Assembly: GCF_002854065.1 (NCBI RefSeq)
Contig: NZ_CP024147.1
Strand: one strand, 5' to 3'
Source: Escherichia coli
GTDB taxonomy: Bacteria; Pseudomonadota; Gammaproteobacteria; Enterobacterales; Enterobacteriaceae
DNA: 64,000 nucleotides
Each line of letters starts with the position of its first letter. Within the stretch, counting starts at the first letter, position 1. The notes beneath the pieces are model-generated. The model searched no databases, was not told where the DNA came from, and was given only the letters and a program-made list of their open reading frames with translations. Below are positions 6,598 through 40,532 of the stretch, piece by piece. The translations under genes were made by a program, and so were the position numbers.

Positions 6598-8700
6598 TTA
6601 CTCAAATCGCCATGCGATATTCACGCCGACACCATAATTTCGCCCGGGCGCAGGTTCGTAATATCGCCCGTTTGACTCATTGACAATGACAGAACCAACG
6701 TATTCTTTATCGAATAAATTATCGACACGACCAAATAAGTCCACAGTTAAATTGTGGTAATTGTATTTATACCCGGTGAATAAGCCGACGAGAGTATAAG
6801 ACGGCGCTTTGGCCGTATTTTCATCATCTGCCATAATATCGCCCATATAACGCGCTTCCGTGCCTGCATACCAACCATCTTCCGGTACATAACCTATCGA
6901 CGCAAAGCCCATATTACGGGCGATCCCTGGCATCCGATTACCGTTACAATCCTGTTCGTTGCAAACATTGCTGCGATAGGTCGCATCAAGCCAGGTCCAG
7001 GACGCGTTTACGCGAAAATCTCCCGCGAAACGTTGATCCCATGCCAGTTCAGCGCCTTGACGACGGGTCTTTCCGGCATTTTTGTAAGTCGTACGCCCAC
7101 CGCTACTGCTATCGACAACAATTTCATCATCGGTGTCGGTCTGGAACAATGCGAGACTAAGCAGCCCATCACCAATACGCGTTTTACTGCCGATCTCAAT
7201 TGTATCGTTGGTGGATGGTTTTAAACCAAAGTTCATACCGCTTTGCCCATCAGCGCGATAAGACAGCTCATTAATCGTCGGCGTTTCAAAACCTCGACCA
7301 GCTGCCAGATAGATATTCCAGGCATCAGTCATTGCATATTTTAACGATCCGGCAGGTAGCCATTTGTGATAACTGGCATCACCACTGTCATCGCCGTTAC
7401 CCGGAGTAACGTAATGGTCGTTGGAATCAAACCACACGGAGCTGTAGCGCACGCCAGCATCCAGCGACAGTTTTTCGCTCAGCTGCCACTGCGTTTGTAA
7501 ATAGGGATCGACGTTCCACATCAGATTGCGTTCGTCGCGACGCAACTCACCTTTTTGCCCGTATTCCGGCACGCCGCTATTCAGGCGGAAATTATTGTAG
7601 CCCTTGCGGTTTTCACTCATGTTTTCGTAGTTCAGACCGGTGGTGAACGTGACTGGAACGCCCAGTTCACCTCGGTGTGTCCAGCGACTGTCTATCCCCT
7701 GGTAATGGCGTTGTAGAGTAATCACGCCACCCGCGTGTGACGGGTTAAGTTGTGGTGCCATCGGGATGGACTGGTATTGGGTCGTTTCACGTTCACCTGC
7801 GTACATCATTACACTCATATCATCGCTTGCGCTAAGACTACGCTCATAACGCAACCCAGCCTGAGTTTGCTTGATGGTTTTTCGCGTGTCGTACTGTTCA
7901 GCGCGTGGCGCTTGTTGTGGATTCGCCTTCCATTCTGCTTCGGTTAATCCACCAGGATCATCTGCTTTTATATCCACACTATTGAAAATCAGGCTTAATT
8001 TGCTGACTTCATCAATGCGTACGCCCAGTTTGGCATTGGCTAAATTTTTCTGTGCGCCACTATGGTCACGGTAGCCGTGGGTCGTAAAGCGCGTGGTTGA
8101 GACGGTGTAATCGACATCGCCAGGCTGTGTACCGTCGCCCATTGCGCCCGTTGCTTTCAGCCCATAGCGCCAGCTGCCAAAACTGCCGTAGTAACTGCTG
8201 GCTTCAATGGTTGGTGGCTGTTGCCCGGTCTGGGTGGTGACATTCATTACCCCGCCAGACGCGTTGCCATACAGGGCAGAGAAGGGGCCACGCAGCACTT
8301 CTACATTTTGCACACTGCTTAAATCGATGTTGGATGTTTGCCCTTGTCCGTCGGGCATGGTGGCGGGAATACCGTCTACATACAGGCGAATACCGCGAAT
8401 TCCGTAAGTGGAGCGGGAGCCAAATCCGCGAATCGACAGCTGTAAATCTTGCGCATAGTTCTGCCGGTTTTGTACCTGCAAACCAGGCACGCTGGTCAGA
8501 GATTCAGACAAGTTGATGCGCGGTGTTGCCAGGCGCATCTCCTCGCCATCCACCACGCTTACTGCTGCTGGCGTATCCAGCTCGGAAACCACCTGCGGCG
8601 CGGCACTGACAATCATGGTTTGTTCATCAGCGGCAAAAACGGCGGGGGAAAGGACAAGCAGCGCGGACAAAACGGTCTGTCGGGCGGAAAAAATCTTCAT
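6598..8700 (-). CDS. yncD: TonB-dependent outer membrane receptor YncD
   Basis: 700 aa; signal peptide, plug and beta-barrel; C-terminal aromatic residue (NIAWRFE). Confidence 0.9.
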   Translation of the reverse strand: MKIFSARQTVLSALLVLSPAVFAADEQTMIVSAAPQVVSELDTPAAVSVVDGEEMRLATPRINLSESLTSVPGLQVQNRQNYAQDLQLSIRGFGSRSTYGIRGIRLYVDGIPATMPDGQGQTSNIDLSSVQNVEVLRGPFSALYGNASGGVMNVTTQTGQQPPTIEASSYYGSFGSWRYGLKATGAMGDGTQPGDVDYTVSTTRFTTHGYRDHSGAQKNLANAKLGVRIDEVSKLSLIFNSVDIKADDPGGLTEAEWKANPQQAPRAEQYDTRKTIKQTQAGLRYERSLSASDDMSVMMYAGERETTQYQSIPMAPQLNPSHAGGVITLQRHYQGIDSRWTHRGELGVPVTFTTGLNYENMSENRKGYNNFRLNSGVPEYGQKGELRRDERNLMWNVDPYLQTQWQLSEKLSLDAGVRYSSVWFDSNDHYVTPGNGDDSGDASYHKWLPAGSLKYAMTDAWNIYLAAGRGFETPTINELSYRADGQSGMNFGLKPSTNDTIEIGSKTRIGDGLLSLALFQTDTDDEIVVDSSSGGRTTYKNAGKTRRQGAELAWDQRFAGDFRVNASWTWLDATYRSNVCNEQDCNGNRMPGIARNMGFASIGYVPEDGWYAGTEARYMGDIMADDENTAKAPSYTLVGLFTGYKYNYHNLTVDLFGRVDNLFDKEYVGSVIVNESNGRYYEPAPGRNYGVGVNIAWRFE

Positions 8701-8835
8701 GAAAAAAGCCAGGTTAAGAATGGGAAAACGCTGTCATGGTAATAAAATTGTAAATTTATGGAAAACGAAACGGCACAATACGTTAAGTGTTTGAGAAAAT
8801 TGTAGTCGTAACGGCAAGAAATGCTCCACATTTGA

Positions 8836-8855
8836 GAAAATAATGATTACCATTC
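8836..8855. promoter_or_regulatory. Fur-box-like site in the yncD/yncE divergent promoter region
   Basis: GAAAATAATGATTACCATTC resembles the Fur consensus GATAATGATAATCATTATC; lies roughly 90-105 bp upstream of the yncE ATG. Confidence 0.35.
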
Positions 8856-8941
8856 CCATTTATAACAAGAGCGTAACGAAGATTACGCTCAGCGAAGCAC
8901 TGTGAAGCAGCAAAAATATCGGTTCATTAAAGGGAGTCGTC

Positions 8942-10003
8942 ATGCATTTACGTCATCTGTTTTCATCGCGCCTACATGGTTCATTACTGTTAGGTTCATT
9001 GCTCGTTGCTTCATCATTTAGTACGCAGGCCGCAGAAGAAATGCTGCGTAAAGCGGTAGGTAAAGGTGCCTACGAAATGGCTTATAGCCAGCAGGAGAAC
9101 GCGCTGTGGCTTGCTACTTCGCAAAGCCGCAAACTGGATAAAGGTGGCGTAGTTTATCGTCTCGATCCAGTCACTCTGGAAGTGACTCAGGCGATCCATA
9201 ACGATCTCAAGCCGTTTGGCGCTACCATTAACAACGCTACTCAAACATTGTGGTTTGGTAACACGGTAAATAGCGCGGTTACGGCGATTGATGCCAAAAC
9301 GGGAGCGGTGAAAGGGCGCCTGGTGCTGGATGATCGTAAGCGTACGGAAGAGGTGCGCCCGCTGCAACCGCGTGAGCTGGTCGCAGACGATGCCACAAAC
9401 ACCGTTTACATCAGTGGTATTGGTAAAGAGAGCGTGATTTGGGTCGTTGATGGCGAAAATATCAAACTGAAAACCGCCATCCAGAACACCGGTAAAATGA
9501 GTACCGGTCTGGCGCTGGATAGCAAAGGCAAACGTCTTTACACCACTAACGCTGACGGCGAATTGATTACCATCGACACCGCCGACAATAAAATCCTCAG
9601 CCGTAAAAAGCTGCTGGATGACGGCAAAGAGCACTTCTTTATCAACATCAGCCTTGATACCGCCAGGCAGCGTGCATTTATCACCGATTCTAAAGCGGCA
9701 GAAGTGTTAGTGGTCGATACCCGTAATGGCAATATTCTGGCGAAGGTTGCGGCACCGGAATCACTGGCTGTGCTGTTTAACCCCGCGCGTAATGAAGCCT
9801 ACGTGACGCATCGTCAGGCAGGTAAAGTCAGTGTGATTGACGCGAAAAGCTATAAAGTGGTGAAAACGTTCGATACGCCGACTCATCCGAACAGTCTGGC
9901 TCTTTCTGCCGATGGTAAAACGCTGTATGTCAGTGTGAAACAAAAATCCACTAAACAGCAGGAAGCTACCCAGCCAGACGATGTGATTCGTATAGCGCTG
10001 TAA
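8942..10003 (+). CDS. yncE: secreted beta-propeller protein YncE
   Basis: 353 aa with signal peptide (MHLRHLFSSRLHGSLLLGSLLVASSFSTQA). Confidence 0.9.
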   Translation: MHLRHLFSSRLHGSLLLGSLLVASSFSTQAAEEMLRKAVGKGAYEMAYSQQENALWLATSQSRKLDKGGVVYRLDPVTLEVTQAIHNDLKPFGATINNATQTLWFGNTVNSAVTAIDAKTGAVKGRLVLDDRKRTEEVRPLQPRELVADDATNTVYISGIGKESVIWVVDGENIKLKTAIQNTGKMSTGLALDSKGKRLYTTNADGELITIDTADNKILSRKKLLDDGKEHFFINISLDTARQRAFITDSKAAEVLVVDTRNGNILAKVAAPESLAVLFNPARNEAYVTHRQAGKVSVIDAKSYKVVKTFDTPTHPNSLALSADGKTLYVSVKQKSTKQQEATQPDDVIRIAL

Positions 10004-40399: not shown

Positions 40400-40532
40400 A
40401 GTTCCTCCTTTTCGGATGATGTTCTGCATAGCAGGTGAGGCAAATGAGATTTATTCGCCACTACCCAGTATGGATGAGATCTGAAAAAGGGAGAGGGAAA
40501 TAGCCCGGTAGCCTTCACTACCGGGCGCAGGC

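Follow-up and report, generated by a model that had tools for sequence, protein, structure and literature searches.

A conserved Fur box in the divergent pqqU–yncE spacer of Escherichia coli as the very likely operator of the yncE promoter

Introduction

The Fur boxes of fhuF, fepB-entC, fepD-entS, fiu, cirA, and fecI are 19-bp, AT-rich, inverted-repeat-like sequences of the GATAATGATAATCATTATC type that lie on a sigma70 promoter, and they score 17–23 bits with the Fur position weight matrix (PWM) described below. Fur ordinarily represses its targets by excluding RNA polymerase. Clusters of Fur sites with a spacing of 6 bp have also been described (PMC2189734). At some loci the arrangement is more elaborate: cirA combines transcriptional repression by Fur with post-transcriptional activation by the small RNA RyhB, and in the fepA-fes locus a gene encoding a TonB-dependent receptor adjoins a Fur box in a divergent spacer.

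The yncE locus of E. coli can be compared with each of these systems. Its Fur box scores 20.4 bits, within the range of the classical boxes; like them, it lies on the (predicted) −10 and spacer region of a promoter, is occupied only in iron-replete cells, and controls a gene that is derepressed in fur mutants, and a second site overlaps it at +6 bp, as in the described site clusters. Unlike the classical boxes, its right half is degenerate in E. coli (CATTCCC instead of CATTATC), and unlike the products of classical Fur targets, YncE, a periplasmic (or secreted) 7-bladed beta-propeller, is recognised neither as an iron transporter nor as a siderophore enzyme. As with cirA, Fur repression is combined with RyhB activation, and yncE resembles cirA and shiA in the structured 5′ leader that precedes its ribosome binding site (RBS). 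The divergent neighbor of yncE, pqqU (formerly yncD), encodes a TonB-dependent receptor, as in fepA-fes; however, unlike FepA, FhuA, FhuE, Fiu, CirA, and FecA, PqqU imports pyrroloquinoline quinone (PQQ), its gene shows no Fur response in MG1655, and the box lies on the promoter of the other gene.

Since 2003, yncE has been recognised as belonging to the direct, core-like part of the E. coli Fur regulon, and published work covers the Fur box, the ChIP peaks, and the control by RyhB: a Fur box in the promoter has been noted (PMC8896160), and in an ExPEC strain the PRODORIC matrix predicted one upstream of yncE (PMC4145685). The main text of the information-theory paper on Fur by Chen et al. (2007) does not mention yncE, and a literal search of the literature for the box sequence gave no match. 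In this report, we locate the operator base by base, follow it across enterobacterial genera, and weigh its relation to yncE, pqqU, and RyhB.

Results

Identification of the Fur box

The window analysed here, a stretch of 64 kb of the E. coli chromosome, contains the 241-bp divergent spacer between pqqU and yncE, and the initial annotation had placed a Fur-like, AT-rich site of 19–20 bp in this spacer, upstream of yncE. The gene positions bear this placement out. The 451 bp around the site were found in 5411 of 5426 complete E. coli genomes, where the flanking genes are annotated pqqU and yncE, and the gene pair is bordered on either side by ansP and mcbR. The two coding sequences are as follows.

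6598–8700, minus strand: pqqU (formerly yncD) coding sequence (NF041535 TonB_rec_PqqU, 1311 bits), the divergent neighbor, not consistently under the yncE operator
8942–10003, plus strand: yncE coding sequence (NF052280 7_blade_YncE, 562 bits), the gene regulated by Fur, annotated yncE in E. coli genomes

The site had been proposed at 8836–8855, which reads GAAAATAATGATTACCATTC. The best register proved to be shifted by +3 bp, to 8839–8857, and the site extends to about 8863. In this register the box AATAATGATTACCATTCCC matches the classical consensus at 14 of 19 positions on the plus strand and at 15 of 19 on the minus strand, and it is the sole position in the window with a match of at least 15/19. 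The 15-bp core ATAATGATAATCATT, searched with at most two mismatches, likewise occurs a single time in the window, at the yncE box. A search of the window for the full 19-mer consensus with at most three mismatches returned no match; because the yncE site, with four to five mismatches, exceeds this limit, we used a PWM. The matrix was built from 12 other Fur-repressed promoters of MG1655 (the intergenic regions of fepA-fes, fepD-entS, fepB-entC, fhuA, fiu, tonB, cirA, exbB, fecI, fhuE, feoA, and fhuF) by expectation maximisation (EM) seeded with the consensus and was then symmetrised; yncE was excluded from training. About 190 kb in all were scanned with it. Two overlapping sites were detected.

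8839–8857, no strand: primary 19-bp Fur box AATAATGATTACCATTCCC, approximately −19 to −1 from the probable yncE start; 20.4 bits, 15/19 to consensus, core present in 78/78 loci
8845–8863, no strand: secondary, overlapping Fur site GATTACCATTCCCATTTAT, offset by +6 bp; weaker, 11.8 bits

The score of the primary box falls among those of the training sites (9.7–22.7 bits) and is the highest in the window, where the runner-up reaches 14.75 bits; its probability per position, from the exact score distribution, is approximately 6.7e-8. The initial annotation had named a low matrix score relative to the background as the outcome that would speak against the site, and the box stands far above that background. 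Could the match nonetheless be due to chance? Intergenic DNA is AT-rich, and a consensus match of at least 15/19 arose in 15% of mononucleotide-shuffled 64-kb windows. The PWM score is far harder to reach: 20.4 bits occurred in 2 of 100 windows of 64 kb simulated with a first-order Markov model and in none of 5000 simulations matched in composition to the 241-bp intergenic region, which argues against a chance match.

Elsewhere in the window, the matrix gave a match of 12.0 bits at 40440–40458 (GCAAATGAGATTTATTCGC), 41–59 bp upstream of adhP (minus strand). adhP is a published Fur ChIP-exo target whose peak position coincides with this match, which, as a check on the matrix, speaks for its validity.

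Conservation of the Fur box

The 43-bp stretch 8824–8866 shows 100% identity in 4998 of 5392 matching E. coli records, and the box is identical in MG1655, where it occupies 1,523,204–1,523,222. For a comparison across genera, we scanned for the YncE protein with one genome per species, which gave 80 loci (Escherichia, Citrobacter, Salmonella, Enterobacter, Leclercia, Lelliottia, Klebsiella, Raoultella, Kluyvera, Atlantibacter, Trabulsiella, and others); 78 of these, spanning more than 20 genera, were usable, and a 79th has too little upstream sequence. The core TAATGATTAYYATTC lies approximately 100 bp upstream of yncE in all 78 usable loci, as does the pattern TAATGATT[AG]YYATTC, and the conserved Fur-box half-site TAATGATTA corresponds to 8841–8849 of the window. 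A PWM match was present in every one of the 78 upstream regions (median 18.2 bits; 68 at 15 bits or more), nearly always 93–107 bp from the yncE ATG, and the best score in the remaining ~2.5 kb of each locus had a median of 5.9 bits. The register of the secondary site, weak in E. coli, scores 18.2–20.4 bits in several Enterobacter and Lelliottia loci. In an alignment of 23 genera, and leaving the RBS aside, conservation within the spacer was highest in TAATGATTAYYATTC.CA, and most of the surrounding DNA was unalignable.

Two other sequences in the spacer are recorded here. The sequence ACGGCACAATACGTTAAGT at 8770–8788 has one mismatch to the marbox consensus of MarA/SoxS/Rob and falls in a spacer block, TAAC.GCAC....GTTAA, that is conserved across genera; it fits the listing of MarA as a regulator of yncE in RegulonDB-derived tables, and marbox patterns are no more frequent in the window than expected by chance (2 versus 1.3). 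An 11-bp direct repeat, TTTGAGAAAAT, whose conservation does not extend beyond Escherichia, is found at 8790–8800 and 8831–8841, its second copy abutting the Fur box.

The yncE promoter

By convention, the insert of a pXG10 reporter begins at the mapped 5′ end of the transcript. The primer for the pXG10 reporter of the yncE 5′ region begins with ATTTATAACAAG, that is, at position 8858 of the window (PMC8896160 supplement). Together with the conserved sequences around the box, this position suggests the following promoter.

8825–8830, plus strand: predicted yncE −35 hexamer TCCACA (TCCAC[AT] in 67/78 loci), at a fixed distance of 17 bp from the −10 candidate
8848–8853, plus strand: predicted yncE −10 hexamer TACCAT (TA[CT][CT]AT in 77/78 loci), inside the Fur box and 5 nt upstream of the probable start
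8858, plus strand: probable yncE transcription start, inferred from the 5′ end of the reporter primer

The −10 candidate reads TACTAT or TATTAT in other genera, and CTCCAC[AT]TT is conserved directly upstream of the Fur box. A sigma70 promoter scan of 8600–9050 at a threshold of 9/12 found no promoter; in E. coli, the proposed pair matches the consensus at 8 of 12 positions, and despite this score we accept TCCAC[AT] and TA[CT][CT]AT as a plausible −35/−10 pair because they are conserved across the loci. With the start at 8858, the −10 hexamer would occupy −10 to −5, closer than usual, the strong box would cover −19 to −1, and the weak box −13 to +6. The box thus overlaps the predicted core promoter: it holds the −10 candidate and stops 1 bp short of the reporter's 5′ end.

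Two other promoter candidates were rejected. TATAAC at 8861–8866, considered as a −10 element, is represented by 37 different hexamers among the 78 loci and lacks a usable −35 element, and a sigma32-like promoter (TTGAGA ... CCCATTTA) is not conserved outside Escherichia.

The presence of the −10 hexamer inside the box raises the question of whether the sequence is conserved merely as a −10 region. Part of the conservation could indeed reflect the −10 element, but the block that is invariant in 78/78 loci measures 15–17 bp, far more than a hexamer.

Fur occupancy and expression in fur mutants

Published in vivo data bear directly on the function of the box. In a ChIP-exo study of strain W3110, peak P54, which was detected in iron-replete cells only, spans 1,524,928–1,524,940 of NC_007779.1 (PMC10164565). 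We took this peak from the W3110 sheet of the supplement and checked its coordinates against the sequence; it reads ACCATTCCCATTT, lies inside AATAATGATTACCATTCCCATTTAT, and corresponds to 8849–8861 of the window, within the operator. In the MG1655 sheet of the same supplement (Dataset 2), the gene and transcription unit columns appear to be one row off the coordinates from P37 onward: P37 at 1,309,033 adjoins tonB yet is labelled acnA, and the peak in the yncE intergenic region is P44 (1,521,238–1,521,250), not P43 as printed. Because of this apparent row shift, the peak–gene pairing of the MG1655 sheet was not used. Fur binding upstream of yncE was also detected by ChIP-seq by Beauchene et al., who in addition found that RyhB raises yncE RNA levels (PMC4676285), and Banerjee et al. 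counted yncE among the direct Fur targets in CFT073 as well as in MG1655, with a ChIP peak height of 845 (PMC7157518). ChIP-seq peaks upstream of the gene have been reported for MG1655 and for CFT073. We found no in vitro footprint or electrophoretic mobility shift assay with Fur on the exact yncE site in the accessible literature.

Expression data agree with the occupancy. yncE is up 147-fold in a fur mutant of CFT073 (PMC7157518), and in a pan-regulon study of nine strains its log2 fold change (log2FC) between fur mutant and wild type was 3.10 in MG1655 and 8.14 in W3110; the gene was Fur-regulated in 8 of the 9 strains and was placed in both Fur iModulons (PMC10164565). The published rise in fur mutants thus spans 8- to 280-fold. 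Loss of fur leads to overproduction of the YncE protein (PMC5120174), and the transcript is up 16-fold under iron limitation (PMC8896160). Fur ChIP and expression under iron limitation had been suggested as further checks on the site, and the published ChIP-exo and ChIP-seq peaks and the derepression in fur mutants are in agreement with Fur control.

An iron-replete-specific ChIP-exo peak on these very bases and the strong derepression of yncE in the fur mutants of many strains effectively refute a reading in which the box has no Fur function. Whether framed as a chance AT-rich match or as a sequence kept only for its −10 region, we regard that reading as hardly credible. Taken together, the PWM score, the conservation across genera, the mapped ChIP-exo peak, and the expression in fur mutants support iron regulation of yncE through an upstream Fur box. 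Very likely, the site serves as the Fur operator for the yncE promoter and comprises two overlapping Fur-dimer sites, a strong one at 8839–8857 and a weak one at 8845–8863.

The yncE leader and RyhB

Counted from the inferred start, the yncE leader comprises 84 nt (8858–8941). Two conserved elements were identified in it.

8869–8890, plus strand: conserved stem-loop GAGCGTAAC GAAG ATTACGCTC, with compensatory changes at 7/7 pairs across 21 genera
8894–8906, plus strand: conserved block GAAGCACTGTGAA, which reads GGAAGC.ATGT in most genera, with complementarity to the seed of RyhB (approximately nt 43–60)

In the stem-loop, 93% of cells are paired, versus 33–47% when the partners are slid, and none of 500 shuffles reached the observed score; an Rfam search of the leader gave no family match. 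The stem-loop and the block that follows it are deleted in Pseudescherichia vulneris and Escherichia sp. ESNIH1. When duplexes were predicted with nt 37–69 of RyhB, they fell on the GAAGCACTGTGAA block in 20 of 22 genera, with energies of −17 to −27.5 kcal/mol, the two exceptions being the genomes that carry the deletion in the leader. For E. coli taken by itself, the seed duplex is not significant (its energy is matched by 7% of shuffles and 14% of genomic tiles), and predictions with full-length RyhB stay at background level. The unremarkable energy in E. coli agrees with the poor rank that CopraRNA gives the RyhB–yncE interaction (approximately −5 kcal/mol). Judged from complementarity and conservation, 8894–8906 is a candidate RyhB pairing site for the published activation of yncE. 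The accessible literature yielded no validation of a RyhB–yncE pairing site by compensatory mutation, and in this respect the candidate site, proposed from conservation and complementarity, is unlike those of cirA and shiA.

RyhB activation of yncE has been published on the basis of Ribo-seq, a lacZ fusion, RIL-seq, and a GFP reporter, and together with the RyhB-complementary block and the hairpin in the leader it could suggest that yncE responds to iron mainly at the post-transcriptional level, or indirectly, with the box in a minor role. However, only approximately 3-fold of the 16-fold iron response has been ascribed to RyhB, and the rest to RyhB-independent factors, for example relief of Fur repression (PMC8896160), and substantial induction by iron chelation remains in a ryhB deletion (beta1 of 2.34 log2; PMC8896160 supplement). 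Fur, moreover, occupies the yncE promoter in vivo. A response carried mainly by RyhB is therefore very unlikely, and we favor transcriptional control through the Fur operator, to which RyhB adds.

The divergent gene pqqU

The initial annotation had considered iron regulation plausible on the ground that yncD encodes a TonB-dependent receptor. Iron regulation at the site stands for yncE, but this rationale does not: YncD is PqqU, a high-affinity importer of PQQ and not of iron, and yncD does not respond to the loss of fur in MG1655 (log2FC 0.12, P 0.39, not significant; PMC10164565). With this substrate and this expression, pqqU does not behave as a Fur-regulated gene for a TonB-dependent iron receptor, and Grinter and Lithgow as well as Hantke reported that YncD/PqqU is neither Fur-regulated nor iron-induced (PMC7193533; Hantke 2022).

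The operator might still be shared, repressing the divergent pqqU as well. In fur mutants yncD rises in W3110 (log2FC 2.95, P 2.7e-51) and in strain 042 (log2FC 2.02), it is counted in the accessory Fur regulon for these two strains (PMC10164565, Datasets 3 and 4), and the Fur peaks of W3110 and CFT073 were assigned to both yncE and yncD. The intergenic sequences of MG1655 and W3110 are near-identical, though the fur response of yncD differs between them. We compared these data with the conserved blocks upstream of pqqU, which lie at 8734–8790, at least 49 bp from the Fur box.

8734–8765: conserved blocks CATGKTAA, TTTGTAAA, and TTGAAAA, 35–65 bp upstream of the pqqU start codon
8764–8759, minus strand: candidate pqqU −35 hexamer TTTCCA
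8741–8736, minus strand: candidate pqqU −10 hexamer TACCAT

From their position and conservation, the blocks at 8734–8765 are probably the pqqU promoter, and Fur bound at 8839–8863 would miss a core promoter placed there. Only 2 of the 9 strains are affected, and the effect could be indirect, through read-through, changed supercoiling, or strong divergent transcription of yncE. Given these points, the flat response in MG1655, the two reports of missing Fur and iron regulation, and PQQ as the substrate, a shared bidirectional operator appears unlikely, and the preferred reading remains an operator of the yncE promoter.

Discussion

The operator described here lies on the spacer of the predicted yncE promoter, its −10 hexamer (8848–8853), and its probable start (8858). 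As the box would cover both the −10 element and the start, promoter occlusion suggests itself as the mechanism. When iron is sufficient, Fe2+-Fur on the operator would block RNA polymerase and keep yncE expression low; when iron is scarce, Fur would leave the operator and yncE would be transcribed. Iron scarcity also derepresses RyhB, which may raise yncE further through its 84-nt leader, and Fur and RyhB would then act on yncE as a coherent feed-forward loop. The conserved, structured leader may explain the activation by RyhB.

A further proposal, speculative and quite improbable in our judgment, is that the operator has a second, strain-dependent output, whereby the loss of Fur raises pqqU (in W3110 and 042) and ties PQQ scavenging to iron starvation, and that the leader hairpin and the RyhB-complementary block form a RyhB-responsive translational switch. 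If this were true, PQQ-dependent periplasmic sugar oxidation and acid production would be linked to iron starvation, along with the Fur- and RyhB-controlled YncE.

For a gene long assigned to the Fur regulon, the operator is now pinned to exact bases (8839–8863) that are invariant across more than 20 enterobacterial genera. The regulatory logic of the locus is corrected as well: the iron-regulated gene is yncE, whose product is a vaccine and diagnostic antigen, and not the gene for the neighboring TonB-dependent receptor.
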